A stretch of 64,000 nt of DNA from positions 86,244,001 through 86,308,000 of the forward strand of contig CM059432.1 of the NCBI GenBank assembly GCA_030390025.1, given 5' to 3'. Positions 2,860 through 44,292 of the stretch are shown piece by piece. This stretch comes from Squalus acanthias (taxonomy: Eukaryota). Each line of letters starts with the position of its first letter. The stretch's first letter is position 1. The position numbers and the translations under genes are program-made. Under the pieces are notes generated by a model. The model was not told the DNA's origin. It made no database searches and was given only the letters and a program-made list of their open reading frames with translations.

Positions 2860-5000
2860 AACTGCCATCTGGCCAGGCACTGGTGGAGGAGCACAAAATA
2901 GAAGAGCACCAAAGCACTGATGCTGAAGACAGCACCGTCACTCGATTTCACACTCGCAGCCACCAGCTCAGATATTGACACACCACGTAGTTTAGAGGAT
3001 AAGTTAGAGGCGGGATCGGCACATGGTGAGTATTGGGCATGAGTGGCCTGTGGCCAGGGCAGAGGGAAAGGGTAGCCCAGGCGCCAGCTCCCCAGAGCGC
3101 AAAGTCGCATACGAGTTCTGCTGCAGAGGACTCAGATGAGGACTTCGATGGAGCGGCATACAGAAGAACGCTGATGGGTATGTACATTTAAATGCTTGGT
3201 GCATTGGCAGACCTGCCAGAAAGCCTGAGTGCAATTTCAAGAAGCATGAGGAGTCTGGCACCCATCTTGCACAGGGCCATGTGCAGAGCTTGGAGCCCAT
3301 GATTTCCAGCATGGAAGTGATGGGCAACTCCATTAGCGCACTTGTGGACCCAGCGTCTGATGGCCGATGTCTCAGCTTCTATTGCAGCACAAGCCACCCA
3401 ACATCTGAGTGCTGCAGCGAAAGCTCAAAGTTCTGTCATACAACCTCAGACTGCTCGCGTGCAGGCTCAGCTTGCTGCCATGCAAGCTCAGACTGCTGCC
3501 ATTGTGGCTAGGTTTACCAATGTGGAAAGGGACTTTCAGGGTGTCACAGCAGTCCAGCAATCTGTCCTCCAACAGATTACTAGGAATGCTGAGGTGCTGC
3601 CCCAGACGGGTGGCAGTGGCTCCGTGGAGCACGAAACTGCTGTCTTCTAACAGGATGACAACATTCGTCCTCCCACCATTGCCACTCCACCAGTGCCCTT
3701 GCTGTTGCCTGTCAGCCAGCCAGCCCAGACTGCTGCTGCCCATGCCAAGGTGGTGCAGTCTGAAGCCGGGCCTTCTAGGCCCAGAGCTGCTTGAGGTCAT
3801 CCTGCAAGGCCATCTGCAATCTCCCCCACTGAAAGTCAGCAGCCTTCCACCAGCCATGCTGCAGCCACTGGGGTACCACTTCATAGGATCACTAGGACAG
3901 GCAAAGGCACACTGAAGACAGGCACTAAGGGAATGCACAAGGGTGACTAGTTGACTTTGTTTGATTATATTGGATGGATTGATGGATAAAGTTGGATTAG
4001 AATGTTTCTTTTGTGGTGGCTTTTATTTCAGCATTGTGGCCAAGATGGTCAGTAACAGAGGGAAGGTAAGGTGTGGGACCAATGATCGCTTTAACAGGCT
4101 GCACGGGCCATTCAAATTCCTGCGTATGCACATTTTTTCTATTTAAAAGCTGGTGTGCTGGCTGCGCTAGAGCTCCAGACAGCTTAACAGGGACATTGCG
4201 TGGGACTATTGTTGAATAGGGAATTGGGGTTGCGTTCACTGGTACCGCAGTTGGATGTGAGGCTGCAGGTCTGGTTGCAAGAGCTAGCAGTGTTCTGTGA
4301 GCACCTCCTTCGTAAAGCACAGACGCCTCACACACTGTTCCTAGATCAGGCTGAGCTAAGAGAATTGCTCTCGGAAGACCCTAGGTGGGAAAGGCCTCCT
4401 GCTGAGAGCCCTTCTCCCCCTCCTCCTCCTCCCTCTGTAAGCAACTTGTCCTCTTCTGCGTTGCCTATGCTCCAGCTCCCTGTCATGCTGCAGGCCAAGG
4501 GGGGTGACAACTACAGCACCCATGACTGGGAGCAAGTGGTCTGGCCAGAACCCTTGAAGTCAGAACCAAGGCCTTCTCCACTTGCAGCACCGCTCCCTGT
4601 CACCTCACCAACTTTAAACGACTCTGGAAACCACCAAACACTTCCACAAACTTAAACAGAGCCAGTAGAAATTAATCAGCAACTAACCTGAGATTGGTTG
4701 CTGATCCCTTTAAATATCGTTGATGGGGGGTCCTTGCTGCTGCTGAACACATGTTCAGCTGTGCGAGGTTAAGACAGGGTGTAAGCTCCAGCGTTCAGGA
4801 CGAAAATGGCAGTGCTGGCGTCAAATCAGTGTTGCACGCTAATTGACGTCACGATCTGCCTACCCAACATACTTCCGGCACACGCTCCTAACACCCGGCG
4901 TACCACCCGCACCAAAATGACGTCCGGCGTGGCCCACACCAGAAGTGTGCGCAGATGCCATTTTCGAGACAAAATGATGCCCGTAGCGCCAAAAAGCCCA
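2860..5000. mobile_element. Degraded Harbinger: Myb-gene last exon remnant (+, ~2860-3950) and transposase 5' remnant (-, ~4230-4520)
   Basis: QQSVLQQITRNAEVLP matches QQSVLRQIAPDAEVLP of the intact copy; minus strand reads RRPFPPRVFREQF...RRLCFTKEVLTE..LLQPDLQP with stops; ends not resolved. Confidence 0.8.
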
Positions 5001-9446: not shown

Positions 9447-10582
9447 ATCTACAGCCCTATTAAGAAGAGCACTCCAAGTTTCCACTACCCTTTGTATAAA
9501 AAAGTGCTTCCCGCGAGAACTGCCTTCCTGTCCTTTACCTCCTGAATATGCACTTCAAGTACACGGTGATCAAAACAGATTGAGAGCCTTGGATGCCTGC
9601 ATTTTCCAGAGATATTGCACAGTAAACCACTGTCCTATTTTCCATAAGCAAATGCCTTCTTAATGCTCTTATGCAATTCAGACTCATTATTGCATCTCGT
9701 GCTAGACTGGGCATTGTAGCACACAATTTACTGAAACCAACAATATTGGGAGTCAACAGAGTAGCCTTCATTTTCTTTTTGGAACCCAGTTAACCCCCCC
9801 AAAAGTGCAGCACCAATTTTTAGGCTGCAATGAAGTACCATCAAGATGCAGCCTAGTATTTGGTTAACTTTTTTCTAATTGGTCTAATTGTTAGCCCAAA
9901 TCCTTTTTTGTCTCCACCTTCACAATTGGATACCCCTTCATCATGTGCATATTTACTGTTTCTTGTTCCAATATACATTACCTTGTATATATCTGTATTG
10001 AAATTCATGCTCCAATACCTAACTAAGCTATTTAATTGGATCCAGGTCTTTTTGAATGCTATTGTTCGGGGGCAATTTTCTCAGCCCCGAGGAGACGGTT
10101 TGGAGGCGGGAAAGGCGGGAAAATCGCAAAAAAGGAGTGCGGGTTTGGAACCCGCCTCCGCGCAATTTTGCCAGTGCCGTTTTTGCAGGGTGGGAAACGG
10201 TCCCGCCTCCAGCAGGCCAGTGAGGTTGTTAAGAGCCTTAAATGGTCGTTAAGGGCCTCTCTAATCCTATTTTGAGAGGCCCTCGTTATTTTTCGACATT
10301 TTCAGCGTGTTCCATGACCCTCCTAAATCACGCCAGCTAAACCTGGCGGGTTGACAAGTGTGTGGCCTCCTCACAGCTGCAGCTCCACCATTAAATCGGA
10401 GCTTTCATCAGGGATTAGTTGCAGGTGGCAGAACTTTGCTTTAAAAGGTCTTTCAGCACTTTTAGCAGGCCTTCCGAAGTCGGAGGTGCTGCAGCTTCTA
10501 TCTAGCAACTGTGGGACCTCCTTGGAAGACCATGTCCCCGCTTGGAATGAGCGCTTCCCCAACGGAGGCATCTGCAAACAGC

Positions 10583-11713
10583 ATGGGAACCATTCATTTC
10601 CTTTCACCATGGACCTCAGATTCGGATCAGGAGCATCCACAACAGCAGCAGAACCAGGCAGCTCAGCAGCAACAGCAGCAGGATCCCCAACCTTCTGCTC
10701 AGCCACCTGATGCTACACAGGGCAGAAGCCGCCAGCGCATCGAGGCACCTCGCCGCAGGAGATACCCCCAACAGAGGGTTTATAGACAGAGGATGAGCTA
10801 CCTCAAAATGAGTGAGTAGCAGTGCCAAAGGAGGCTGAGACTTTCGCGAGAGGTTGTCCGAGAAATCTGCGGACTGCTGCAGCAAGACCTGGTGCCCAGA
10901 GGAATGCGTGGACACCCCTTACCAGTGGCTGTCAAAGTCACCACCGCACTCAACATTTTTGCCTCAGGCTCCTTCCAGGGATCATCAGCAGACATCAGCG
11001 GCATCTCCCAGTCTGCCGCCCACAGTTGCATCACGCAGGTTACCGATGCCCTTTTCGCAAAGGCGCACAATTACATCCAGTTCTCAAGGGATCAAGCAAG
11101 TATAACCGCGCGTTCGGTTGGCTTTGCAAATATGGCAGGCTTGCCAATGGTGCAGGGCGTCATAGACTGCACACATGTGGCCCTTAGGGCACCCCATCAC
11201 AACCACAAGGGCTTCCACTCCCTCAACGTACAGCTGGTGTGTAACCACAAGAAGGAGTTTTTGCATGTTTGCGCCAAGTTCTGTGGTAGTTGCAATGACT
11301 CTTTCATCCTGCGGCACTCTAGTGTTCCTCTGCTTTTCAATCCACCAAACCAACTTAACGGATGGCTCCTTGGTGACAAAGGCTACCCCCTGAAGAAGTG
11401 GCTAATGATGCCAATCAGGAGGCCAGCTAACGAGGCTGAAGAGTGCTACGCCAGCCACACTTCGACCAGGTCCATCATCGAGCAAACCATTGGGTTGTTG
11501 AAGATGCGCTTTCGATGCCTTGACCGATCAGGTGGAGCCCTGCAGTATACACCATACAGGGTCTCCAGAATGGTCGTGCTCTGCTGTGCACTGCACAACA
11601 TGGCACAGCGTCGTGGCTTGCAGCTTCCTGATGAGGAAGTGGCTCAGTTCCAGGCCTCCTCAGATGAGGATGAGGATGAGGAGGAGGAGGAGGATGAGGA
11701 GGCTGAGGATTAG
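10583..11713 (+). pseudogene. Harbinger/HARBI1-like DDE transposase pseudogene
   Basis: GVIDCTH, NDSFI, LGDKGY, IEQTIG, LHN motifs; in-frame TAG at 10817-10819 and small deletions relative to the intact copy. Confidence 0.9.
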
Positions 11714-12029
11714 GAGGAGGAGGAGGAGGAGGAGCAGGAGGAGGAGGAGGACCGAGCGCCGATCTATCGACCAGCAGCAGCGGCAGCACGCAAGCACATG
11801 GCTGCCCGTGATGCAAGGGATGCACTTATTCTGGCCAGATTTGCATAGGTTGCCCATGTTGGCACATGCCCTTGGCTCCATCTTAAGACATCATAGACAA
11901 TGGACATGACTCTCTGGCCTCCTTTCACTCTGGCCACCAACCTGACAACGCAAGTGTCGCGGAGCCCGCAATGTGGAGCTGCCTAAGGCGCAAGAACAGA
12001 TGCCATCACGCCAACATTTTGCCATCAAA

Positions 12030-12275
12030 TCATTTTAATGCTTTCCAACAGGGATGGCATTTCATCAATACACATAAACATTCACCCAATCTGCACACAG
12101 ATCTGGAGGTTATATCCCTTGCCAGCTGGACCCACACAGCCTTGGTTTCTTTGGGAGGCCTCTTCCTCCCAGATGAGGGAAAGAGCACCTCCCTGCTAGC
12201 CCTCACTCCCTCAACCAACATTTGCAGCGCTTCATCCGAGAACCTCGGGGAGGCCCTTACCTTGGAATTGGACAT
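12030..12275 (-). pseudogene. Truncated Myb/SANT-like gene of Harbinger A
   Basis: PRFSDEALQMLVEGV...VLFP...W..LA trihelix N-terminus; breaks off before the third helix. Confidence 0.8.
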
Positions 12276-13439
12276 AGTGGTTTCTCAAAATATGTTACAG
12301 GTGGTGCAGCATTGACAGAAATCCAGTGGAATGATCCAAGGCAGCAAGCAGCCCTTAAATCAGGCTGGAAAAGTGATGTCAGCAGAGGCGAGTTTCAGTC
12401 CCAAAACACTAATTGACCAAGGGCAACCCATACCTCTGAAATCAACTGGTCAATCAGGGGAAAATCGCAATTTTTTCAAACCGATCAGTGGAGGCGGGTT
12501 TGGAACCCACCCAAACCGAAACCTGCCTCCAACCCGCCTCCAGTGGGAAAATCGACCCCTTCATCCTTATATTTGTTACTTGACCACGTAGCTTAGTATC
12601 ACAAGCAAATTTTATTTACTGTGCTATAATTACTGTAATAATAGAAAAAGTAAAATTGTTTGAGTCATTTATGAATACAATTAGCAATACAGGGCTCAGA
12701 TGGGGGAATTCAGTAGTCACAAACCTCCAGACAGAGCTTCTTTTGCTATTTATTGTCACCTTCTGCTTCCAATTACCAATCCACTTTTCTTTGTTTTTGA
12801 ACTGCAATTGTTCTCAGTTACAACACACAGTCATATATTTATACATGTGTACTTTTAAAGAATACAGAATGATAGGGAGTGACCCTTGCATAGAAGTTTA
12901 CAAAAGGCAAAGGTACTGGGTCTGATAAGTGGTGTTGGGATTTAGGTATGATGCTGGTAGATAGGTACAAACAGCAACTTCCAATGCACTGAATTATGGA
13001 GTGTTGTATTTGCTCGAGCTGTTGGACTCTAACTTCTCAGAGAAGTTCACACAGTCAGATCACATTTGAGTTCAGTAGCTCTATACTGGATTTTTGTTTA
13101 TGTTACTTCAGGTGCAAATTTGGTGTGTCTAGAATCTGGATTATAATACTGGGAGTTCCAATCATCGTTCATGATGTCACTGAAGGTGTCATTTTGCCAT
13201 ATAAGATTATAAACTCCCATCAGCGAGAACAGCAGAGAAATGCTTGCTTTTAAATGACATTCCTCTGTCCGCTATTTTATCGCGGACTCTAACCTATTAT
13301 TTTTTATGGGTTACCATCTGCATTAAAATAGCAGCAAGAAAATGTTACATAAGCACACTAAGCATTAATCTGCTAATATTAACAATAATTTCTAGCCTAA
13401 AATGTCTTGGCATAAAACATGGGAAAAGATCTCCCATTG

Positions 13440-16177: not shown

Positions 16178-17685
16178 CTAAAAAAAGATGGTATCATTTT
16201 TTTCCAATACAGTTTCAAATCTAGTAAAATATTTTCAGAAAGGATGTTTTACTTGTTTATATTCCTATATTGGTGTGAAATAAGACTCCACTATTGCAAG
16301 TTCCACTTACTCAGAGAGAAAGTAATGTACACAGTAGAAGTTCTGTATTAGGGTATTACCCACAGCAAACCAGTTTCCTTTATTTATTAATTCCTATTAA
16401 GCAAAGACTGTTTAGAAATTAAGTGTAAGGACAATAATATTACATGCAAGTATCTAAGAGGGTATTATACAGGACTACTGAACATTCATGGCACACCAAT
16501 AACATAATAAAGTTATGCAAAATCTACTCATACAATCTATATTTCATTAGTTTCTTAAACAAAATCAGCATTTATCAAAGTATGAGCAGTTAGTTAAAAC
16601 CATCCTAAGAAAATAGTAATTCCTTTAATTTAGTTATACCAATTGGTTCAATAATAGTCCAGTTTCAGCACAGGTTAATACATACTATAAAACACAACAC
16701 TAGTGTAAAACCTTTCTATTAACTTGTATGCCATTCAAATATATTTGAAAAGGGAAGAAAAAGTGCTTCAGTAAATTTTCTAGAGGTAACTGTACTGCAA
16801 TTTTCATAAAATGTAATTATTAATACTATCAAAGTTACACATACTTTAATTTAATTAAAGATGTGCATATATTTTAATAAATCACCATTAACATTTGCCA
16901 CTTTATTGAGAACAGTTCCTTCAGATCTGCTTGAATAAAATGAAGGAATGATCATTTTGAGCTGTTGATGAAATTCTGAGACCAAGGTAGGAATATGTTT
17001 GAATAATGTATGGATCATTGACCATTGTACCATCATAAACCTGTTTGGCCAACAATGCTTCAAGTTCACTGAACAGGTTTCAGGAGGTAACAGAAAGTTA
17101 TTTCTATGGAAGATTGCTATTAATTGGCAAGACCCAAAAGTTTAAAGGGTTGGTGAAAGGGTCTACGAAATATTGGGGTAAAAATTCAGTTGGTTGCGCC
17201 TCCCGTTAGCGCCTTAAGAGGGCGCTAATGGGGCGCAAAGCCGCTAACGCCCGGGCGCAGCGATGTTTGCGCCGCTCGGGAACTTAACTAGAGATTGTGC
17301 GGCGGCGCTAAAACTTACCGCTGCGACCACCTGCGCGCGCAGATTGTGACGTCATTCCATGGTGCAACGCCCTTGTGGCGCCCCGGAGCGGAAATTGAGT
17401 GGCGCCCCCTGCCTTACCGCCTGGCGCTTCCAACGACCGGAAGACTGGAACGCTATCAATCGCTGTGGGGCTGGGGGGGGCGCTATTTAAAGGGGGCCTC
17501 TTCCTGTCTTTTTCTGTGGTCGACATTTTTGCACCACTCGTTCTGAGAGAGAGAGAGAGATTCGGAGAGAGAGAAAGAGAGACTTCTACATTGACTCAAC
17601 GCTTTGTGAGGTAGTTTTGCCTATTGATCCTAACTTTGCTGCTACTTTAGTTGCTGTCCTTCATTACTTTGCTTGCAAAGAGAAT

Positions 17686-18837
17686 ATGGGGGCTGCACTG
17701 ATTGGGGGCGTCGTCCTGCTCCAGCTGAATCGGAGGATACAGAGACGCAGAGAGAGAGTGGCAATGATGGCCAGACGGAGGAGGGCCATCAGGCGTATGT
17801 ACAGGAGAGCTTACCCTCCCAGGGTATATCGTGAACAGCTCTCCTACATCCATATGTCCGAGGAGCTGTGTTTGCGAAGGCTGCGATTCAGCAAGGAGGT
17901 GGTCACTGAGCTCTGCCACCTGCTGCAGCCAGATCTGCAGCCTCAACTGAGGTCCAGGACGTCTCTGTCGGTGGCAGTGAAGGTCACAGTGGCTTTGAAC
18001 TTTTACGCTACTGGCTCATTTCAAGCTGCTGCTGGGGACCTCGCCAATATCTCCCAGTTCGCGGTGCATTGCTGCATCCGGCAGGTCACAAATGCCCTCT
18101 TCAAAAGGAGACGAGAGTTCATCTCTTTCCCCATGACCCCAGACAAGCAGCGTGACCGCGCTCTGGGCTTTGCGAGGGTAGCGGGCTTCCCCATGGTGCA
18201 GGGCGCCATTGACTGCACGCATGTGGCTTTGCGTGCTCCGCATGAGAATGCTGAGGAATTCAGGAACAGAAAGGGGTTCCATTCCTTGAATGTCCAGTTG
18301 GTCTGTGACCACAGACAGCTGATACTCGCTGTCAATGCCCAGTATCCTGGCAGCTGCCACGATGCTTTTATCCTGCGCCAGACTACTGTGGCAGAACTTT
18401 TCGAGGCACCGCATCAGCCAGTTGGTTGGCTTCTCGGGGACAAGGGGTATGCATTGAGCACCTGGCTGATGACACCGCTCCGTACGCCCAACACCCCTGC
18501 TGAGCTGCGGTACAATGAGAGCCATCAAGCTACCAGGAACATTATTGAGCGCACAATCGGCGTGCTGAAGCAACGGTTCCGCTGTCTGGACCATTCTGGA
18601 GGAGCCCTGCAGTACTCGCCTGAGCGAGTATCGAACTTCGTAGTCGTGTGCTGCATGTTGCATAACATGGCAATCCTCAGGACCCAGCCAATGCCACCAG
18701 GCCTTGGAGCACCACCAGAGGAGGAGGAGGAAGAGGAGGAGGACGATGATCATCAGCAGCACCAAGGCGGGAGGGCGGCCCACAATGGTCAAACTGCAAG
18801 GGCCGTCCGTCAACGGCTAATAGCAAGCCGCTTCTAG
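17686..18837 (+). CDS. Harbinger DDE transposase (HARBI1-like), 383 aa
   Basis: Uninterrupted ORF from ATG 17686; GAIDCTH, HDAFI, GDKGY, IERTIGVLKQRF, LHN motifs. Confidence 0.95.
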   Translation: MGAALIGGVVLLQLNRRIQRRRERVAMMARRRRAIRRMYRRAYPPRVYREQLSYIHMSEELCLRRLRFSKEVVTELCHLLQPDLQPQLRSRTSLSVAVKVTVALNFYATGSFQAAAGDLANISQFAVHCCIRQVTNALFKRRREFISFPMTPDKQRDRALGFARVAGFPMVQGAIDCTHVALRAPHENAEEFRNRKGFHSLNVQLVCDHRQLILAVNAQYPGSCHDAFILRQTTVAELFEAPHQPVGWLLGDKGYALSTWLMTPLRTPNTPAELRYNESHQATRNIIERTIGVLKQRFRCLDHSGGALQYSPERVSNFVVVCCMLHNMAILRTQPMPPGLGAPPEEEEEEEEDDDHQQHQGGRAAHNGQTARAVRQRLIASRF

Positions 18838-19131
18838 GGCCCCTGCCATTGCTAACAACATTAATGAACCCAGCACGCAACCCCTAAGCCGGCCAAGGCA
18901 CCAATAATTCCAACCACCAACCATGTATATTTTGAATACAGAAACTTATTTATTTTACAAACTCTGTGTGTGTCAATTCCTCATGACAAACTCATAGAAA
19001 TAAACACAAAAAAACAGTCAATAACATAACTGGTTCTCACAACCTGGAGATAATGTCCAAAACACTAAACAAAAGTTGGACCATGAACCTCGACCTTTAA
19101 TAAAAAAATGACCAGCATTTTGTCACACCTC

Positions 19132-21008
19132 CTACTTTTTGCCCTTCGAGGGTGATCTCCTTCCCTTGCGCACTTCCCCCCTTCTAACCCTACTGCTCCT
19201 CCGTAATGGGACCTCAGTGGCTGCAGCAAGGCTGGTGGAAGGCTGCTGCTCGTCAGACCCTGACACTGCAGATGCCCCTGAAGGACGGCCTCGACCAGTT
19301 CTGGGCCTGGAGGGCCCGGCTGCAGACTGCACCAACTCTGCATGGGCGGCAGCAGTCTGTCCTACAGGCGGTGGCAAGTGCAGTGGAGAAGTGACAGTGT
19401 TGGCAGCAGGAATGCTGTCATCGTGAGAGAGGACAGCAACTCCCTGCTCGCCCGACACACTGGCACTCCCACGGGGCAGCACTTCAGCATCCGGAGCAAT
19501 CTGCCGGAGAACAGATTGCTGGCCTGCTGCGGCGCGGTGACAGCCCCGGGGACATGTGCACGAACCATCGAGGTTGGCAGCAGTCTGTGCTCGCGTGGCC
19601 TCAATCTGAGTCTGTATGAGAGCAGTCAGAGATGGGATCACGGCAGCCAGTGACTGAATTGCAGCACTAAGCGTTAGTGTGGCATCCGCCTGTGCTACAG
19701 CGAAGTGCTCCACACTCCTTGCCAGTGACTCAATGCATTCGGGCACCCTTCCCACTGCACCCATGAGCTCAGTGTGCATGCCCACCGCCTGGGTGTTCAT
19801 TTCTGCGATCAGCCGCTCCTCCTCTGCGTCCATTGCAGTAGGAGTGTCTGGCATACTCTCCCTCTGGGGAGAAGGCCCCCGTTCTTCCCTACCCCCCCCA
19901 TGGCGTTGCTGCAGCCCGCTGGGTCCTGGAGCTTCACCCTCATCAGACCCTTCCCCCCTGCTCCCCTCCAGGGAAGGCGTGTTCCCAGTGTGGGCATGGG
20001 CTTCCTCGGGAGAGGGTGGCACTGATGCTCTGGCTTCCTCTTCCTCCTCAGCTGCAGCATCACTCCCAGTGGCAGCTTCAGGGCCCGTCTCCTCAGCTGG
20101 TGAATCACCATCTGAAAGCAGGGAGGTACAAGAGTGGCTTTAGCGTGAGGACAGGGTGGCAGTAAGGGAGGAATAAGTGCAGCGAGTTAGCAAGTTGGAT
20201 TGAAAGTGTCAAAGGCTGGTGTTGTGAGGGACAAGTGGAAGGACAGAGGACAAAAAGGTGATGACCTTACCATTGCTGTCCAGAACGGGGTCGGCGTCTC
20301 CAGTGGCGACGGGACCGATCACCCGGCTTGCCACGATCATGTGGACGCGTTCCTCAAGATCGCTGAGGGGTTGCAGCTGAGGCCGCCCTCCACCTGTCCG
20401 TTGCTGCTGTCTCCGATTATGCGCCAGCTTGGCCTGTAAGAAAAAGGACAGCATCTGAGTAAATATACAGCCATGGTCTTGCCTGATGTGCCTCCCATAG
20501 GTGAATAGCCCTTACTGTATACAGCCATGGTCTTGCCTGATGTGCCTCCCATAGGTGAATAGCCCTTACTGTATGCAGCCATGGTCTTGCCTGATGTGCC
20601 TCCCATAGGTGAATAGCCCTTACTGTATGCAAAGTGTGGAATGTGTGTGTGTGTTTGATGAAAGGGCCATAGGTGTTGGATGAGTGTTGTGCATTGGGGT
20701 TTTAAGACCCTCTGGCCATAGAGTGAGGTTGAGATGGAGGGATGGAGAGGTATTGAGAAAAAGCCACTCACCCTGACGACCCGAGTGAGGTCGTTGAACT
20801 TTTTGCGGCATTGAGTATGGGTCCTGGGCACCATGCTCCTGGAGGAGACGCTCTGAGCCACCTCCCTCCACACTCTTCTGAACTCGTGTGGCAAAGGCCT
20901 CCTGCCACTCTCAGGGAAGAGCATACATCTTCTGCGCTCCACCGCGCCAACCAGAGCATCCAAGGCCCGCTCGGTGAAGCGATGAGCGCGTTCTCTCACC
21001 CTCTCCAT
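19132..21008 (-). CDS. Harbinger Myb/SANT-like DNA-binding protein, 3 exons (21008-20772, 20433-20271, 20111-19132), 459 aa
   Basis: RFTERALDALV..W.EVA..RT..QCRKKFNDL trihelix; GT-AG introns (phase 0 and 1) join to 1380 nt in one frame ending TAG. Confidence 0.9.
20467..20628. repeat. 3 x 54-bp tandem repeat in Myb intron 1
   Basis: Unit RCAGCCATGGTCTTGCCTGATGTGCCTCCCATAGGTGAATAGCCCTTACTGTAT, near identical copies. Confidence 0.97.
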
Positions 21009-21385
21009 GCTTGGCAGCAAAATGGATTCACAGGTCTCTCCAGGCCGAGATTCAAGGCTGCAATGAGCAGGGTGTGGCTGGGGAGCAAGTTGGCCCCCCC
21101 CGCTTTAAGAAGTGGCCGGCGCCAGTGTGTCTGTGTTCCCTCGCTAACTGGCAGCAGCTGTGCTGCGCTCGCGCGCTGAGTTAGCGCCTCACTCCTTGGC
21201 CTTTGCGCCTTAAGACAGGTGTGCAGCGCCTGATTTAGCGCTCCACTCACCTCCCGGGGCGGTAAAAGTGAAGTTTCCAGTCAGTGCCGATAATTAGCGC
21301 CAGGCGCTAATATTTGCGTCCAGACGATATTTGCGCCCCAAATGGGGCGCGACCTAATTTTTACCCCATTGTGTTTAAATCTCAA

Positions 21386-21431
21386 GGGGGAAAAATTCAT
21401 TTGCTTTGCACCTCCCATTAGCGCCCTAAGA
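21386..21431. mobile_element. Solitary Harbinger family-B terminus
   Basis: GGGGGAAAAATTCATTTGCTTTGCACCTCCCATTAGCGCCCTAAGA matches the ends at 17175 and 39270. Confidence 0.8.
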
Positions 21432-21799: not shown

Positions 21800-22030
21800 T
21801 AGCATGGGAACACCATCACCTCCAAGTTCCCCTTCAAGTCACACACCATCTTGACTTGGAATGATATCGCTGTTCTTTCATTGTCGCTGGAACTCCCTAC
21901 CTAACAACACTGTGGGAGTACCTTCCCCACATGGACAGCAGCAGTTCAAGAAAATGGCTCACCACCACCTTCTCAAGAGCAACTAAAGATGGGCAATATA
22001 TGCTGACCTTACTCGCGACACCCATAATCC
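21800..22030 (+). mobile_element. LINE 3' end (L2/CR1-group)
   Basis: Homologous to the 3' part of 48545-49200. Confidence 0.7.
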
Positions 22031-22041
22031 CAATAATTAAT

Positions 22042-22786
22042 GGCCCAAAAATTCGGCTGAATACGGGAGAGTATGAACTGTGCACTCTCGCGTATTCAGT
22101 CCCGAAGTGCCGGTTTCCTGCATGCACTGCGCATGCGCGGGAAACCGGCACTTCGGGTATGGCGAAGGGGGCGGTTCTTAAGTGAACCGCGTGCGCACTA
22201 CAGGCTGCGCGCATGCAGCGCACTTAGGTTTTTTTTCAGGTTTCAACGCGAAGGTAAGTATGGAAGATTTTACACGTGAAGAAAGGAGGCGTAAGACCCC
22301 CTTTTAACAAGGTAAGTAGTTAATTAAGTATTATTTTACATTTTTTTCAACAGGTTTATCTTTTTTAGAGACTTTAAAGAAATATAAGTTTATTTTTATA
22401 ACTTTTAAAAAATTTAAATTTTTGTTTAAAGTGGTTAATTTATTTAACTATAGTTATTTTATTAATGTGATAGGTTTTTAAAAAAATTTATTTGAGGTTT
22501 AGCTGTTCTTTTGGGGGCAATTTGTATTCATAGTTTTGACAGTTCTCCTGTCAAAGCTATGAATGAAAGATGGTGTGCTGCCATTGGCTCTCCATGCCCC
22601 ACGTGATCCCAGAGGTCGCATCGAACTAACTGCGCCTCTGGGACACGCACACACTGCGCGCTGGCACCAGGGAGAGGCCCAGGAGCTGAAGTTCGTGTGG
22701 GCCCGAAACACAACGGCCGGCGCGGAGTGTGATATCGCGGGGGATCCTTACCCCCGCGGCAAGACTCCGAGTCAAATTTCTGGGCT
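22042..22786. mobile_element. Harbinger-type MITE
   Basis: TIRs GGCCCAAAAATT / AATTTCTGGGCT, TSD AAT. Confidence 0.8.
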
Positions 22787-30270: not shown

Positions 30271-31220
30271 ATGGACTGTCCCAGCTTAAGTCCTGCAAAT
30301 GTTTAGCTGTGCTGTATAGTATTCTGTCTTTGCTTCTGGTCCTGTAAAGTATGGAGCCATCTGGACAGTAGTTTAATCTTTAGAAAGTATTCTAGAGTTG
30401 TGAATAATTTCTGCCTTCCGAGATATAGTGCAGATCCTACATGAGATACAGTGGATATCCTACAGAAGGTGTAATGCAGATCCTGCAGGAGATATAGTGG
30501 GTATCCTACAGGTTCTTCAGTAAGTGATTTACCATGATCGGGGTTAACTGTTAGAACTGAGCTGCTATAACTCAGTGTGGCAGAGAGTAAAAGATGCTGC
30601 TTCTCAGTTCATAAGAGAAGCAGTCTCCTTATGGAAACTGTTGCCAAGCCATTTACATGATGATAAAGTTTTGAAAACCTGAACTTTAACACCTGCATCA
30701 TCTTAATTAACACAGAGTTATGCTGCACCTACCAGGCCCAGCCCAGGCCGCTCCAGACCCTGGGGGTGAAGGGGTATCTCTGGGTACCGGGGGTGAGTTG
30801 GAATATATTTATTTTTAGCTTAACTTTAAAAAAATAATGATCCTGCTCTCTAGACAGTGAGGGGAAGAAATTCGGAATCGCCCCGTTTGGGCGCAATTAT
30901 CAGCTGGGCGCAAAGTTTAGCGCCTGGCGCAAATTATTGCCTCCAACTGCAAACTTGGCTTCTATCGCCCCTGGAGGTGATTGGAGCGCTAAATCAGGTG
31001 CTGCACACCTCTCTTAAGGCGCTAACGCCGAGGAGCGAGGCGCTAACTCAGAGCGCTGGCGAAGCTCAGGTGATGTCAGTTAGCAATGGAACACAGACAC
31101 ACTGGCGCCGGCCAGTTCTTAAAGGAGAGGGTTGATCTTGCTCTCCAGCCACACCCTGCTCATTGCAGCCTTGAATCTCAGCCTGGACAGACCTCAACTT
31201 CAAATCTGCTGCAAGGAACA

Positions 31221-32937
31221 ATGGAGAGGGTCAGGGAACGAGCTCAGCGCCCGGGCCTTGGTGGCTCTGGTTGGTGCAGTGGAGCGCCGAAGACCAATAC
31301 CCTACCCACAGTGTGGCAGGAGGCCATTGCCCCGCGATTATAGAAGAGTGTGGAGGGAGGTGGCTCAGCACGTCTCCTCCAGGAGCATGGTGCCCAGGAC
31401 CCACACACAATGTCGGAAGAAGTTTAATGACCTCACTCGGGTGGTCAGGGTGAGTGGCTGCTTTTCAATACCTCTCCATCCCTCCATCTCAACCTCACTC
31501 TGTGGCCAGAGGGTGTAAAAACCCCAAATGCCCAACACTCATCCCAGACCTATGGTCATCTAATAAAACACACACGCACATTCCACACCTTGCATACATT
31601 AAGGGCTATTCAACTATGGGAGGCACATCAGGCAAGCACATGGCTGCACATTTAGTCAGACGCCGTCCTTTTTCTTGCAGGCCAAGCTATCTCATAACAG
31701 GCGGCAGCAGTAATGGACGGCTAGAGGGCCGCCTCAGCTGCAGACCCTCAGCGATTTGGAGGCGCGTTTCAAACCAGGTGATAAGTCCCGTGGCCGCTGG
31801 AGAGGTTGACCCCCCTTGGGCACAGCAATGGTAAGTTCATCAGCTTTCTCTCCTCTCATTCCACTTGTCCCTCACAAAACCAGTCTTTTACACTTTCAAT
31901 CCAACTTACTAAATCGCTCCAGTCCTTGCTCCCCTGTCCTGACGCTAAAGCCACTCTTGTACCTCCCTGCTTTCAGATGGTGAACCACCAGCTGAGGAGC
32001 CTGGCCCTCAACCAACCAGTGGGAGTGACGCCGCAGGTGAGGAGGAAGAGGAAGCTGAGCCTCAGCACCAGCGTCTCCCGAGGGAGCCCATGCCCACACT
32101 GGGACCACGTCTTCCCTGGAGGGGAGCAGGGGGGAAGGGTCTGATGAGGGTGAAACTCTGGGATCCAGCGGGCTGTAGCAACGCCATGGGGGTAGGGAAG
32201 CTCGGGGGCCATCTCCCTGGAGGGAGAGTAGGCCAGCGAGTCCTGCTGCACTGGACGGAGAGGAGGAGCGGCTCATCGCGGAAATGAACACCCAGGTGGT
32301 GAACATGCACACTCAGCTCATGGGTGCAATGGGAAGGGTGCCCGAAAGCATTGATGGACTGGCAAGGAGTGTGCAGCACAGGCCGATGCAACGCAAGGGC
32401 TTAGTGCTGCAATTCAGTCACTGGCTGCAGTGATCCAATCTCAGACTGCTCTCATGCAGACTCAGATTGAGGTCACGCAAGCACTGACTGCTGCCATCGT
32501 CGCTGGTTCGGCCACATTGCCCCGGGGTTCTCACGGCGCCGCAACAGGCCAGCAATCTGTGCTCGAGCAGATTGCTCCGGATGCTGAGGTGCTGCCCCGT
32601 GGGAGTGCCAGTGTGTCGGTCGAGCAGGGAGGCGCTGTCCTCTCTCAGGATGACAGCATTCCTGCTCCCACCACTGTCATTTCCCCATTCCACTTGTCAC
32701 CGCCAGCAACACAGCCAGCCCAGACTGCTGCCGCCCATGCAGAGTTGGTGCAGTCTGCATTCGGGGCCTCCAGGCCCAGAGCTGGTCAAGGGCGTCCTTC
32801 AAGGGCATCTGTAGTCTCAGCATCTGACATTCAGCAGCCTTGCTGCAGCCACTGGGGCCCCATTACGGAGGAGCAGGAGGGTGGGAAGGGGAGAAGTGCG
32901 CAAGGGATGGAGATCACCCTCGAAGGGCAAAAAGTAG
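31221..32937 (+). pseudogene. Myb/SANT-like gene pseudogene (3 exons)
   Basis: WREVAQHVSSRSMVPRTHTQCRKKFNDLTRVVR; same intron positions as the intact copy; frameshifts. Confidence 0.88.
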
Positions 32938-33248
32938 GAGGTCTAAAGAAATGGTGGGAATGTTTTTATTAAAGGCCGAGGTTCGTCTGATAACTTTTGT
33001 TTAGTGTTTTGGCCATTATCTCCAGCTTGTGAGAACCAGTTATGTTAATTAATGATTTGTGGTGTTTGTTTCTATTAGTTTGTCATGAATAAATGGCACA
33101 CACAGAGTTTGTTAAATAAAAAAGTTGTTGTATTCAAAATGTACATGTTTGGCCCTTGTATCATTGCTGCTTTGGCCGGCTATAGGTGTTGCGGGTTGCT
33201 TTCCATGATGTTGTTCTCCATGCCAGAAGCCATCTTCTGAGCAGGGGC

Positions 33249-34380
33249 CTAGAAGCGGCTTGTTATCAGCCGTTGACGGACAGCCCTTGCAGTTTCAACA
33301 TTGTGGGTCTCCCTCCCGCCTTGGTGCTGCTGCTGATCATCCTCCTCCTCCAGTGGTGCACCAATCCCTGGTGGCATTGGCTGAGTCCTCAGGATTGCCA
33401 AGTTGTGGAGCATGCAGCATCCAACTATGAAGAGGGAGACTCGCTCAGGAGAGTACTGCAGGGCTCCTCCTGAGTGGTCCAGACAGCGGAACCGTTGCTT
33501 GAGCATGCCGATCGTCTGCTCAATTATGTTCCTGGTGGTGATATGGCTCTCATTATACCGCAGTTCGGCAGGGGTGTTGGGGTTACGGATCGGTGTCATC
33601 AGCCAGGTGCAGAGTGGATAACCCTTGTCCCCGAGGAGCCATCCACTTAGCTGATGCGATGCCTGGAAAAGGTCGGCACACCAGTCTGGCGCAGGATGAA
33701 AGCATCGTGGTTGCTGCCAGGATAGCGGGCATTGACGGCGAGTATGAGCTGTCTGTGGTCACAGACCAACTGAACATTTAAGGAGTGGTAGCCCTTGCGG
33801 TTTCGGAAAACCTCTGCATTTTCATGCGGTGCCCGCAATGCCAAATGTGTGCATCAATGGCGCCCTACACCATGGGGAAGCCGGCTATCCTAGCAAAGCC
33901 ACATGCGCGTTCATTCTGTTTGGCCAGGGTCATGGGGAAAGAGATGTACTGGCGTCTCCTTTTATAGAAGCCATTTGTCACCTCCCGGATACAGCAATGG
34001 ACAGCGAACTGGTAGATATTGGCGATGTCCCCAGTAGCTGCTTGAAAGGAGCCGGTGGCATAAAATTTCAGAGCCACTGTCACCTTCACTGCCACTGACA
34101 GAGACGTCCTGGTCCTCAGTTGAGGCTGCAGATCTGGTTACAGCAGGTGGCAGAGCTCAGTGACCACCTCCTTGCTGAAGCGCAGCCTGTGCAAACACTG
34201 CTCCTCAGACAAATGAATGTAGGAGAATTGTTCCCGGAATACCCTGGGAGGGTAAGGTCTCCTGTGCAGATGCTTGTTGGCCCTGCTCCCTCTGGCCATG
34301 TTTTGGCACTCTCTCTCTGCGTCTCTGATGCCTCTGATTCTGAAGGTGCAGGACGACGCCCCGAATCAGTGCAGCCCCCA
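33249..34380 (-). pseudogene. Harbinger transposase pseudogene
   Basis: [45 protein letters not shown] in broken frames. Confidence 0.9.
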
Positions 34381-35365
34381 GTCTCTTCTAAATCGATGCA
34401 AGGAAGGTCAAATCAAAAAGAACCTGCAAAGTGCTGCTCAGTAGCAAAACTCCTTCATACAGTGTTGAATCTCTCCAGAAGTCTCTCTCGCTCTCGCAGA
34501 ATCTCTCTCTCTCTCTCAGAATGCGTGGTGCAAAAATGTCTCCCACAAAAAAAGGCAGGAAGAGGGCGCCTTTAAATAGCGCTCCCCCAGCCCCTTCCCG
34601 ACTGCAAAACGTTCCCCTCAACCTGCTGTTGCTAGCGGCAGGCGGAAAGGAAGGGGGCGCCACTCAATATCCGGTCCGGGGCGCTACTGGGGCGTTGCAC
34701 ACTCGACTGATGTCACGATCTGCGGGCGCAGGAGATTGTGGCGGTAGAGTTTAGCGCCGCCGCAAAATCTCTGGTCAATTTCGCGAGCAGCGCAAACTTC
34801 ACCGTGCCCGGGCGCTACTTGCTTTGCTAACTGGAGGCGCAAAGCAACCGAATTTCTCCCCGAGTGTCTTTGTGAACCTCTTCAGGCAAAACTTTTTTTT
34901 TATGTTTCACATTTCAATGCATGCGGTGTAATGCAGACAAAGATGAGTTGTGGATGTGTAACCCAAGAAGACGGTCCTGAACTGGAAATGTTGATGTGAA
35001 TGAGTGTCTGTTTAAAGCCGAACAATACCAAGGCAGGAGGAGGAGGGAAGCACTTTTTAATCTTAAATTAGGTGGCAGTTCTACAAGAGCTTTTGCTCCC
35101 ATGTGAAGTGGTTTTGGGTGCACTTCAATGAAAACGTGGTGGTATAACCAAAAAGATAATTGAGGGTAATAATAAAGGCATGAGGCAAGAGTCTCATAGG
35201 TGTTTATGTTTGCACTGAGTGCACATTAACTCCAGCTTTAGTTTCTCACCACCTCCCAACAAATGTTGGAAACAAAGTTATTGCTAATGTCTGGTGTACT
35301 AATGAGAATACTTAACAGAACAATTCATTTGGTTCATCAAGTGTTTTCCTTCCACCAACAATATC

Positions 35366-38548: not shown

Positions 38549-39270
38549 GGGGGAAAAATTGAGTCGCACCCAAAAAAATTAGCGCCCCCGCGGCCGAAAT
38601 TCACCGGTAGCGCACCAAGAGGGAAGCGGGGTGCTACTAGAAGCGCTCCACCTCCCTCTTGGGGCGCTGCGAGTGAATATCGTGGTGCTACATGCCGCAG
38701 CGCCACGAGATGCGGCATGTCGCGCCGCGGTACTGCAGGCCTTCCTCCCCCTCTTAAAGGGGAGGGGCCTAGTGCAGCACAACCTGGGACCCAGCTGGGC
38801 CACCAGGGATCAGATTGCTGGCAAAAGAGCCCGGCACTCAAGAGAAGTGCCGGGCTCACAGAGCGCAGCCGGCACTCCGCGGGGGCTGCAGAAGAGGCCG
38901 GGGACGGCAGAGGGGGCAGGTGCTGGCAGGCGGCCAGCAACAAAAATGGCTGCCTGGCACCTTCCCTTTAATTAGCACCGCCCCGGCCGCAGGTAGGCCC
39001 CCCCTGACCCCGTCGGACATAGCGTCCGGCGGTAATCAGGGGTTGCTGCCGAAGATCGCAGCCGGGGCACGAATTGGGCACTGCACACAGCGATGACGTC
39101 ATCACCGGCGGCGCAGCACCACGGGGCGCTAACGGTTGCCGCCGCTAACTTCCCGCTGAATTTCGCAGGAGGTGTTGACAGCGCCGCGCCCAGGCGCGAG
39201 TTGCTTTGTGCTCCGTTAACGCCCTCTTAGGGCGCTAACGGGAGGTGCAAAGCAACCGAATTTTTAGGCC
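38549..39270. mobile_element. Harbinger MITE (family B)
   Basis: TIRs GGGGGAAAAATT / AATTTTTAGGCC; TSD CAA; subtermini match 17175 and 34861. Confidence 0.9.
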
Positions 39271-39379
39271 CAAGTCCCTACGTCCCTTTATATATTTCTC
39301 AGCAGCCCTCAAGATTGAGGACTGTTCAGTCACACTGAGTCAATGTGCACAGAGAGCATATTCTAACAATTTAAATCAT

Positions 39380-40972: not shown

Positions 40973-41768
40973 GGGCTGGATTTTCACAGCCCCGAGGAGG
41001 CGGGTATGGAGGCAGGTGTGGAGGCGGGACTGCCGGTAAAGTAGCAGAAAGTGGGGGCAGATGGCAAACCCGCCCCCATCCTGCCTGCGTGCCCTTTTGC
41101 CAGGAGGCGGGAAGATGTGTTGCTTCGGGTCCCGTCTCCTGGAGGCGGGAAAGGGATTAAATCCTTTTAACTGCCTGTTAAACTGGCAGGTACTTCTGCG
41201 AAATTCAGCGGGAGGTTAGTGGTGGAGGTAACCGTTAGCGCCCCGCAGTGCTGCGCCGCCGGCGATGACGTCATCGGCGTGCGCAGCGCCCTGCTCGCGT
41301 CCCGGCCTCGATCTTCGGTAGCGCCCCCTGACTTAACGCTGGACGCTATGTCCGACGGGGTCGGGGGGCCTACCTGCGGCCGAGGCGGCGCTTTTTAAAG
41401 ATGAGGTGCCGGGCGGCCATTTTTGTTGCTGGCCACTTGCCAGCACCTGCCTCCGCTGCCGTCCCTGGCCTCCTTACCCGCCCCCCCCGCGGAGTGCTGG
41501 CTGCGATCCGTGAGCAGGTGGCCCAGTTGGGCCCTGGTCGTGCTGTGCAAGGCCCCTCCCCTTTAAGAAGGGGAGGAAGGCCTGCAGTACCGCGGCACAT
41601 AGTGCCGCGATATTTCCTCACAGCACTCCAAGAGGGAGGCGGGGCGCTTCTAGTAACGCCCCGCTTCCCTCTTGGGGCGCTACCACTCAATTTCGGCCGC
41701 GGGGGCGCTAAAAGTAGTGCCCCGGCAAAGTTAGCGCCCCAAAGGGGGCGCAAATCAATTTCTCCCCC
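40973..41768. mobile_element. Composite of a family-A MITE end (40973-~41195) and a family-B MITE (~41198-41768)
   Basis: Left part matches the reverse complement of the 26351 end; right part is the reverse complement of 38549-39170. Confidence 0.82.
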
Positions 41769-43025
41769 TATATTTCTTGCTCGTTTACTCTCATAAGCTA
41801 TTTTCTCCCTCTTGATTATTTTTTTAGTCATCCTTTGCTGGTTTCTAAAATTTTCCCAAACTTCTGGCCTACCACTAATCTTTGCAACATTGTATGCCTT
41901 GTCTTTCAATTTGATACCATCCTTAACTTCCTTAGTTAGCCATGGTTGGTTCATCCTTCTCTTCGAGTCTTTCTTTCTCACTGAAATATATCTTTGTTGA
42001 GAGTCATGAAATATCTCTTTAAATGTCTGCCACTGCTTTTCTACCGTCTTACCTTCTAATCTATTTCCCCAGTCCACTTTAGCCAACTCTTTCCTCATAC
42101 CTTTGTAATTGCCTTTATTTAAGTTTAATACTCTAGTTTCAGACCCAAGTTTCTCACCTTCAAACTGAATGTGGAATTCAATCATGTTATGATCACTCTT
42201 CCCTAGAGGATCCTTTACTATGAGATCATTAATTAATCCTGTTTCATTACACATTATCAGTTCTAAAATAGCCTGTTCCCTGGTCGGTTCCACAATGTAT
42301 TGTTCCAAGAAACTGTCCCGAATACACTCTGTGAACTCGTCCTCAAGGCTGCTTTTGCCAATTTGATTTGTCCAATCTATATGAAGATTAAAATCACCCA
42401 CGATTATTGCAGTACCTTTCTTACAAGCCTTCATTATTTCATGATTTATACTCTGTCCTATAGTGTAGCTACTGTTAGGGGCCCTATAGACTACTCCCAC
42501 CAGTGCCTTCTTTCCCTTACTATTTCTTACCTCCACCCAAATTGATTCTGCATCTGGAACTTCCGAGTCAAGATCATTTCTCACTATTGTACTGATCTCA
42601 TCCTTTATTAACAGAGCTACCCCACCTCCTTTTCTTTCTGTCTATCCTTCCGAAATGTCAAATACCCTGAATATTCAGTTCTCAGCCTTGGTCACATTGC
42701 AACCATGTCTCTGTAATGGCTATTAGGTCATACCCATTCATTTCTATTTGTGCCGTAAATTCATCTATCTTGTTACAAATGCTGTGTGCATTCAGATAAA
42801 GAGCCTTTAATTTTGTCTTTTTATCATTTTTCCCTACTCTGACCTTATTGGCTGGTGCACTCTTATGTTTGTACGCTCTGTCCCTTCCTGTCACAGTCTG
42901 GTTTTCATTGCCCATATCGCTACCCTGCACTATTGCCCTGTCCTTTCTCTTTAACTTTCTAAATTTCCCCTCACTTGTACCCTTCCCCCCCCCCCACTAT
43001 TTAGTTTAAAGCCGTATCTACAGCC

Positions 43026-43958
43026 CTAGTTATTCGATTCGCCAGGACACTGGTCCCAGCATGGTTCAAGTGAAGGCCTGTCCCAACGGAACAGCTTCCT
43101 CTTTCCCCAGTACTGGTGCCAGTGCCCCATGAATCGAAACCCATTTCTCCCACACCAATCCTTGAGCCACGCATTCAACTCTCTGATCTTATTGTCCCTA
43201 TGCCAATTTGCTCGTGGCTCAGGTAGTAATCCAAAGATTATTACCTTTGTGGTTCTGCTTTTTAATTTAGACCCTAGCTGCTCATACTCCCTCAGCAGAA
43301 CCTCTTTCTTAGTCTTACCTATGTCGTTGGTACCTACGTGGACCACGACAACTGGATCCTCCCCCTCCCACTCCAAGTTCCTCTCCAGCCCCGAGGAGAT
43401 GTCCTTAACCCTGGAACCGGGCAGGCAACACAGCCTTCGGGGCTCCAGCTCTCGGCTGCAGAGAACAGTATCTATCCCCCTAACTATACTGTCTCCTACC
43501 ACTACAACACTCCTTTTTACACCCCCCACTTGAATGGCCCTCTGTACCACGGTGCCGTGGTCAGTTTGCTCATCCTCCCTGCAGTCCCTGCTCTCATCCA
43601 CACAGGTTGCAAGAACCTCGTAACTGTTGGACAAGTGCAAGGGATGAGGCTCCTCCAATGCTACCTCCTGGATCTCCATACCTGCCTCACTCGCAGTCAC
43701 ACACTCTTGTCCCTGACCACGGGCCAAATCTGAAGTATTTACCCTAAGGGGTGTGACTGCCTCCTGGAACAAAGTGTCCAGGTAACTTTCTCCCTCCCTG
43801 ATGTATCGCAATGTCCGCAGCTCGGACTCCAACTCATCAACTCTGAGCCGAAGTTCCTCGAGCTGCACACACTTACTGCAGATGTAGTCGTTTTGGATCA
43901 CACTGGTGTCCACCAGCTCCCACATGCTACAGCTGCAACACATCACCTGCCTTGCCAT
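43026..43958 (-). CDS. CR1 ORF1 protein (zinc finger, coiled coil, SGNH/GDSL esterase-like), C-terminus probably frameshifted
   Basis: CxxCxMW..CxxC, LRLRVDELESEL, VVGDSIVRG, LPGSRV, HVGTND. Confidence 0.88.
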   Translation of the reverse strand: MARQVMCCSCSMWELVDTSVIQNDYICSKCVQLEELRLRVDELESELRTLRYIREGESYLDTLFQEAVTPLRVNTSDLARGQGQECVTASEAGMEIQEVALEEPHPLHLSNSYEVLATCVDESRDCREDEQTDHGTVVQRAIQVGGVKRSVVVVGDSIVRGIDTVLCSRELEPRRLCCLPGSRVKDISSGLERNLEWEGEDPVVVVHVGTNDIGKTKKEVLLREYEQLGSKLKSRTTKVIIFGLLPEPRANWHRDNKIRELNAWLKDWCGRNGFRFMGHWHQYWGKRKLFRWDRPSLEPCWDQCPGESNN

Positions 43959-44292
43959 CTCTATTGTATTTTATTTAATTAATTACGTCAATATCAATCA
44001 ATTGGCTATTTATAGTTTTAATCTAGGTAAACTAGGTAATAACCTTGTTTAATTTATTAAATTTATTAAAATAAGTTTAGTTAGTTGTAACTTTAGTTAT
44101 ATGCTATATATCTTTACTGTAACCTAGCCCTCAGTCCTAAGAGAAAAGAAATACTCACCATCAATCACCTACCTGCTTACCTGTGATGTCACACTTTGAT
44201 TTTTTTTTTGTTATTGAATTGGAGCCTCACTGCTCCTCCCCCGCTGGATCTGCTTTCAGCCTCCTCTCGCTCCTCTTTATTCTGCTCCCGCT

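Follow-up and report, generated by a model that had tools for sequence, protein, structure and literature searches.

In the genome of Squalus acanthias, a stretch of 64,000 nucleotides (assembly GCA_030390025.1, contig CM059432.1, positions 86,244,001 to 86,308,000 of the forward strand; hereafter the window, within which all positions are counted) contains a Harbinger transposon whose two genes, one for a transposase and one for a Myb/SANT protein, both appear unbroken. Such a copy raises the question of why it is intact: it may be a working source of its family, or it may have inserted so recently that decay has not yet reached it. The vertebrate Harbinger shown to transpose is a reconstructed zebrafish consensus (PMC2836001, PMC3016246), and the literature searched, which did not extend to subscription papers, yielded no such assay for a vertebrate copy in its native form.

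We lean slightly towards the explanation that the element is a complete two-gene Harbinger and a young copy of a massive expansion, intact for lack of decay time and not because it is a selected or active source. The evidence consists of the boundaries and genes of the element, the depth and variants of the family in sequencing runs, and the pattern of amino acid replacements within the family and between the element and a broken second copy in the window.

Boundaries and genes of the element

The features of the element and its second copy are as follows (ORF, open reading frame; TIR, terminal inverted repeat; TSD, target-site duplication).

17175..21367, plus strand: full-length two-gene Harbinger element, 4193 bp, delimited by TIRs, a depth step and the alignment of copy 2
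17172..17174: left TSD, ATT
21368..21370: right TSD, ATT
17175..17186, plus strand: left TIR, 12 bp
21356..21367, minus strand: right TIR, 12 bp, identical to the left
17187..17475: left subterminal region in which WWGCGCC recurs, putative Myb binding sites
21067..21355: right subterminal region with WWGCGCC motifs, putative Myb binding sites
17484..17491, plus strand: TATA-like word 5' of the transposase, also in copy 2, putative promoter
17686..18837, plus strand: transposase ORF, 383 amino acids, no internal stop (from the ORF, Pfam and the homologue alignment)
18949..19004: convergent 3' region with AATAAA on both strands (minus 18949-18954, plus 18999-19004), putative polyadenylation
20772..21008, minus strand: Myb/SANT exon 1, 79 codons, tri-helix domain
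20434..20771, minus strand: intron 1, GT-AG, 338 nt, both splice signals retained in copy 2
20464..20631: tandem triplication, within intron 1, of a 54-bp unit, the units differing by 0-1 base
20271..20433, minus strand: Myb exon 2, 163 nt
20112..20270, minus strand: intron 2, GT-AG, 159 nt
19132..20111, minus strand: Myb exon 3, 980 nt, with a low-complexity linker and a basic C-terminal tail, putatively like a nuclear localization signal
30861..34862, minus strand: second full-length copy (copy 2), identity 80% with gaps counted, both genes broken by frameshifts and stops

The perfect 12-bp TIRs and ATT TSD reported by the initial annotation are present as described, with 12/12 identical bases in TIRs that begin GGGG and ATT on both sides. 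However, a 12-bp inverted repeat accompanied by a 3-bp direct repeat is found as four pairs in the window and as 0-3 pairs per block-shuffled window (n=40), so that such a combination can be obtained by chance; TIR and TSD alone were therefore rejected as proof of the ends, which needed other support. Assembled contigs from four of 23 listed sequencing runs were aligned to the window: X2, X7 and X8, carrying organism labels A, B and C respectively, and X9, which stems from another individual and is guessed to be an RNA run. At the left end, the summed depth of X2 contigs is 19-25 over the flank and jumps to 1.7 million in the bin with the left TIR (summed contig depth is not a copy number, since overlapping short contigs inflate it), and position 17175 is where three X9 contigs end loosely. 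Copy 2, which can be aligned with the element from end to end, backs the ends independently.

The motif WWGCGCC, chosen by eye, occurs seven times in 17175-17475 compared to 0.6 expected, a count equalled in 0/300 shuffles, and five times in 21067-21367, again compared to 0.6 expected. Of the target site, the right half (GTGTTT, after the right ATT) agrees at 5/6 positions with its half of the Harbinger3_DR target consensus and the left half at 2/6 (PMC3016246).

The transposase was claimed to be unbroken and to carry acidic catalytic motifs, and both parts of this claim hold: it matches DDE_Tnp_4 (PF13359) in Pfam with E 5e-40 and has an acidic triad D176, D252 and E288, with a further D226 belonging to an HD motif. 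DDE is the commonest state of the triad among the homologues spanning all three sites (51/119). The AlphaFold model of the protein (mean predicted local distance difference test score 87.4) has a predicted DDE fold, with piggyBac as its best structural match (Z 9.9, root-mean-square deviation 5.1, 233 aligned), followed by Tn5 (Z 9.1, 5.9, 235 aligned) and ISCth4 (Z 8.6, 4.3, 205 aligned); no close solved structure for the two-protein mechanism was found in the structure searches. The transposase departs from conserved columns at Q51, I55, S93, S95, T233, A236, H303 and T333, which copy 2 has too and which are thus family traits, and at Y39, M57, L61, L119 and A256, which are absent from copy 2. 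The exact sequence is absent from a collection of 15 billion proteins. A spliced 5' leader may be considered for the transposase, but copy 2 has lost the candidate donor and acceptor near 17605-17685 and has CTG as its start codon.

On the opposite strand, the convergent three-exon Myb/SANT gene with canonical introns could likewise be upheld. Its joined exons form one frame of 459 amino acids with a single terminal stop, exon 1 matches Myb_DNA-bind_5 (PF13873, E 1.4e-8), and the predicted spliced protein aligns with shark gene model P0008 without a gap over the junction of exons 1 and 2 (109 amino acids, 47%). The exon 1 query gave one match among 146 candidates. For exon 3, neither a homologue at E 1e-5 among 8000 scored candidates nor a Pfam match was found, and its frame rests on its openness and on a single-frame tblastn match to an older remnant in the window (36%, residues 208-457). 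In X9, contig 31 continues from exon 1 into intron 1 and no GT-AG joint is present among the 15 of 39 joints listed, contigs being informative on presence only; among the runs listed as containing the element, none is given as RNA. Both frames are open, and the two-gene anatomy has no obvious disabling lesion.

The CpGs had also been described as well preserved. As a marker of youth we rejected this, since the observed/expected ratio is 0.57 in the element and 0.51 in the frameshifted copy 2, as it is in an older transposase remnant (0.51; whole window 0.46), and a ratio so close in intact and broken copies is no marker of youth.

Size, age and relatives of the family

Over the element, the summed X2 depth has an interior median of 604,000 (17 bins) and reaches 1.5-1.8 million at the ends, so that the element lies about 10^4 times above its flank and its ends about 2.7 times above its interior. 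From this we infer a family of thousands to tens of thousands of copies together with extra derivatives that consist of ends only.

Variants were tallied from 40 of 211 variant rows, 31 of these 40 lying inside the element. Over these 31 rows, the variant shares in labels A (X2) and B (X7) correlate with rho 0.84, and since both labels carry the same profile, the expansion likely began before the split of A and B, provided that they are distinct species. Compared to seven of the eight listed X8 pieces, the element has 36 differences over 3560 bases (1.0%), the eighth piece, which overlaps, is 194 nt long and has ten differences, being excluded. Near-private variants, where at least 94% of the depth differs from the element, occupy seven of the 31 rows, which gives a lower bound of 0.17%. 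The element is thus placed about 0.2-1% from its own family. At 7e-10 mutations per generation, the rate of the epaulette shark (PMC10587355), this corresponds to about 3-14 million generations, so that a shark element may count as young without being of the present day. At 20339 no X2 contig has the base of the window, which fits either absence of the copy in that animal or loss of a rare variant during assembly, and this position was not counted. Three same-study runs (X21-X23) have a share of 0.00 of the element's words, from which nothing follows.

Presence of the element's words in runs of eight organism labels (A-H), at 0.40-0.85, might be read as spread of the family among unrelated organisms by horizontal transfer. 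The X8 contigs, of label C, are about 99% identical to the element, and Harbinger transfer among marine animals is documented (PMC8437027). Yet all eight listed X8 pieces start and end inside the element, have a depth of 2-6 and differ where they overlap, as expected of trace DNA of a high-copy family, and this explains them best. X8 has no cover on the shark-type repeat at 21802-22300; the window's piece of this repeat is diverged (81% to another copy in the window), so trace DNA could still account for the pattern. In runs X8, X10 and X12-X17, which carry five other organism labels, the share of words present is 0.42-0.46. No protein exceeds 71% identity among the 120 listed of 291 matches, and the transposase nests with elasmobranch rows, apart from those of bony fish and an amphibian. 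Horizontal transfer is therefore very unlikely in our judgment. A shark repeat with so many copies could serve as a sensitive marker for trace shark DNA.

Among the matches listed, the best relatives of the transposase are elasmobranch gene models, with P0001 of Pristiophorus japonicus at the top. A midpoint-rooted tree was built from the query together with 37 of these 120 homologues, picked for length and species spread; in it the transposase falls in a starred clade of 17 rows (100/99) consisting of the query, 15 elasmobranch rows and one further row, while five bony-fish rows and one amphibian row lie outside it. From this tree, the lineage of the element looks long resident in elasmobranchs.

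Among the homologues are several groups of elasmobranch 'HARBI1-like' models (P0011/P0013; P0027/P0029/P0071; P0042/P0044; P0004/P0005; P0006/P0017/P0020/P0016/P0012) that are conserved over shark and ray orders on short branches, and most of those checked are without the catalytic Glu. Judged by these sequences, cartilaginous fish likely have several separate domesticated Harbinger transposase genes. One might then ask whether the two genes described here have themselves been domesticated by the host, as with the pair HARBI1 and NAIF1, the more so as database homologues are named 'putative nuclease HARBI1' and several of the shark groups look domesticated. We give this hardly any credence, given the TIRs and TSD, the decayed copy 2, the enormous family and near-private changes that look neutral.

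Intactness, selection and present movement

Two patterns of replacement have to be told apart. Within the family, eight of the nine listed segregating sites of the transposase are silent (P 1e-4), and compared to copy 2 the element has fewer non-synonymous changes than expected, both in the transposase (87 vs 121) and in Myb residues 1-115 (28 vs 42; each 0/2000 context-preserving simulations). These data indicate source lineages under selection, and purifying selection is, on the coding sequences compared, part of the family's history. At the near-private coding sites, conversely, four of five changes replace an amino acid, a ratio of four replacements to one silent change that indicates neutral drift in this copy. 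Intactness of the element is what youth alone predicts: with indels at the rate seen relative to copy 2, the neutral probability that both frames are still open is 0.72 at 0.2% divergence and 0.19 at 1%, and in a very large family many copies will be open by chance.

A hint that the insertion is dimorphic came from X9 contig 32 (224 nt, minus strand, depth 3.6; orientation taken from piece 1 of the same alignment table). Positions 1-198 of its record match 21574 down to 21368, and on the element side, where the right TIR should begin, 26 letters remain unaligned. A filled allele would match the TIR there, and an empty allele mismatches at its first seven positions. Because contig 32 and the X2 flank share a 9-bp deletion, the contig derives from the same locus. 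The insertion is thus probably still dimorphic, with an empty allele in existence. No empty-site joint is present among the joints listed, all with a depth of at least 15, a depth that would hide the X9 contig and possibly one of X2 as well.

The initial annotation had proposed that this copy, a candidate naturally active element, may be competent as it stands; on this reading the family transposes in the germline today with the element as a working autonomous source. All cis-acting and coding parts are present, the very large family with its deeper ends is consistent with many mobilised deletion derivatives, contig 32 hints at a dimorphic site, and the strong silent bias of segregating transposase variants suggests several functional source lineages. 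However, at least seven near-private differences, mostly amino-acid changing, imply that the exact sequence has few or no daughter copies, and the variant profile recurs in the second organism label. Dimorphism does not settle the matter either: diversity in the epaulette shark is 0.002, with an effective population size of about 710,000 (PMC10587355), and with a shark population near this size a dimorphic site may be about a million generations old. We consider present germline transposition with this copy as a working source unlikely.

Equally unlikely is the opposite possibility, that intactness is only apparent and that private substitutions or mis-splicing already cripple the element. Candidates for such damage are Myb H41 and M111 (Arg in the family majority), I299 and transposase Q219; of the five near-private coding changes one of the four replacements falls within the Myb domain, 171 variant rows lie outside the listing, and the tandem expansion of intron 1 is absent from copy 2, which has one 54-bp unit and is 108 bp shorter there. 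Against this, transposase position 219 varies freely among 25 homologues and is Gln in one, the residues aligned with Myb position 41 are not the same in P0008 and P0121, the catalytic triad is intact, and most departures from conserved columns are common to copy 2. Weighing these points, we put the chances that the element is competent for transposition as it stands, as far as its sequence can tell, at about even.

Several observations weigh against reading the element as merely a young copy preserved by lack of time. Present transposition of the element or its relatives is compatible with the data; the age depends on a mutation rate borrowed from the epaulette shark; and the hint of an empty allele comes from a single contig with a depth below 5, whose leftover 26 letters were not seen. 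With only 40/211 variant rows listed, private damage may hide and the silent and non-silent counts are those of a filtered sample. As to selection, the deficit in Myb residues 1-115 weakens without CpG sites (23 vs 29.5, 27/2000), and Myb exon 3 gives no sign of purifying selection compared to copy 2 (85 observed, 81 expected). Finally, Foldseek returned nothing for the transposase model at E 0.001 or better.

Should the element or its relatives move, then by analogy with Ping/Pong and Harbinger3_DR (PMC2836001, PMC9392472) the GCGCC motifs that recur next to the TIRs would be bound by the spliced Myb/SANT protein, which would bring the DDE transposase into the nucleus and to the element ends. 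The transposase would excise the element, usually precisely, and reinsertion would take place at a 3-bp target, preferably next to a GTGTTT-like half-site, duplicating those 3 bp. Deletion derivatives might be moved in trans by the same two proteins. That the family still transposes in the shark germline, that the insertion is dimorphic and that the unmodified copy transposes in cells are, taken jointly, doubtful. If this were true, the locus would hold a vertebrate Harbinger that works in its native form and, for study of the two-protein mechanism, a substrate ready to use; in any case, an unbroken native copy makes a transposition assay cheap, and the element is a good candidate for one.

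Related copies in the window and known systems

Other Harbinger sequences make up, with rough boundaries and together with the element, about 20% of the window (MITE stands for miniature inverted-repeat transposable element).

38550..39271, minus strand: old MITE whose termini are related to those of the element (82% over 89 bp with the left end), with imperfect TIRs and a likely AAG duplication
41190..41768, plus strand: second old MITE, in which one terminus is clear (72% over 65 bp with the right end of the element) and the left boundary is approximate
21386..21431, plus strand: remnant of 46 bp from the end of a related Harbinger, 18 bp past the right TIR

Copy 2 is inverted and lies 9.5 kb from the element, with frameshifts at about 17767, 18213 and 18390 in element coordinates and several deletions in the Myb gene. 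Its divergence is uneven, the introns and exon 3 differing by 11-12% but exon 2 and the 5' end by 23%, a hint in the sequence of a mosaic history. WWGCGCC occurs four and six times at its ends, and in the two MITEs eight times (1.06 expected) and three times (1.19 expected, equalled in 37/300 shuffles). The suggestion that the element may mobilise these MITEs was borne out only as far as the shared end motifs go: the two are 79.5% alike and have imperfect TIRs, and they are thus old relatives and not evident current clients. As Ping and Pong cross-mobilise (PMC2836001), cross-mobilisation of the MITE family by the element is plausible by analogy.

Two older Harbinger remnants, at about 3069-4750 and about 10500-12400, each have transposase and Myb parts, with 51% and 57% transposase identity. 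A 14-bp inverted repeat, flanked by AAG on either side, pairs positions 17219-17232 with 21414-21427. At about 22030-22300 lies a CpG-rich, partly palindromic repeat of high depth, possibly another MITE family, preceded by what we take to be a CR1/SINE-like (short interspersed nuclear element) tail. The window is presumably rich in CR1-like repeats, and the long minus-strand ORFs at 43026-43970 and 41370-42641 have, as we assume, the look of CR1 ORF1 (esterase-like) and endonuclease; the latter frame is interrupted by one of the MITEs.

No paper devoted to such a shark Harbinger family was found in the literature searched, the scope of which excluded subscription papers, Repbase and Dfam. A 2022 teleost survey reported that it found no Harbinger in the elephant shark, suggested loss in cartilaginous fish and requested other species (PMC9179366). 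In the accessible supplements of the PHIS survey, Leucoraja and Callorhinchus appear in the genome list only, and PMC4255032 does not mention Harbinger. In light of the suggested loss, the present data mean that Harbinger elements, as a superfamily, can make up a major part of a shark genome. The biology is nevertheless of a known kind, since intact expanded vertebrate Harbingers have been published for sea kraits (PMC8437027) and ongoing accumulation for the coelacanth (PMC5381603).

By its DDE_Tnp_4 ORF, Myb/SANT gene, TIRs, length and TSD, the element is of the broad PIF/Harbinger (PHIS) two-ORF Myb type, described as having short TIRs starting with G or A, a length of about 4.1 kb and a 3-bp TSD (PMC4482050). 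It was not filed in the narrow PIF/Harbinger group, whose TSD consensus is TWA (Han et al. 2015), as its own TSD is ATT; elsewhere in the window the TSD is about TCA for copy 2 and likely AAG for one MITE (three sites in all, two of them decayed). Nor was it filed with NuwaI, the group with a CWG TSD that includes the zebrafish Harbinger families (PMC4482050), its half-site resembling that of Harbinger3_DR all the same. Whereas domesticated genes of the HARBI1/NAIF1 type would be single-copy and without TIRs, the element is TIR-bounded and multi-copy. The elasmobranch HARBI1 gene models are automatic annotations, many without the catalytic Glu, and no description of them as a transposon family was found in the literature searched; the nearest of those listed, P0001 ('putative nuclease HARBI1'), has 71% identity over 80% of the transposase and sits in the same clade.

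Compared by description, Harbinger-Snek of Laticauda shares with the element a two-gene vertebrate Harbinger design, explosive expansion, many deletion derivatives and intact copies, 269 of them in L. colubrina and one in L. laticaudata. For Harbinger-Snek, activity is suggested, with RNA-seq reads on both genes, and arrival was horizontal (PMC8437027), whereas the element nests among elasmobranch homologues. The coelacanth Harbinger, of a different lineage, also has signs of ongoing accumulation in a slowly evolving vertebrate, and its expression was reported in a transgenic mouse cell line (PMC5381603, PMC9179366). Zebrafish Harbinger3_DR has a transposase gene plus a Myb-like one, both of them needed, a 3-bp duplication and a similar right half-site (PMC2836001, PMC3016246, PMC9392472), but is by its description a reconstructed consensus with a CWG duplication, whereas the element is native and its duplication is ATT. 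Ping/Pong of rice, with mPing (PMC2836001), and Harbinger-1M of the nematode C. inopinata (PMC13668399) have the same two-protein design and MITE derivatives, and the element, a native copy, has both ORFs intact as they do; for these two non-vertebrate systems, natural transposition is directly evidenced.

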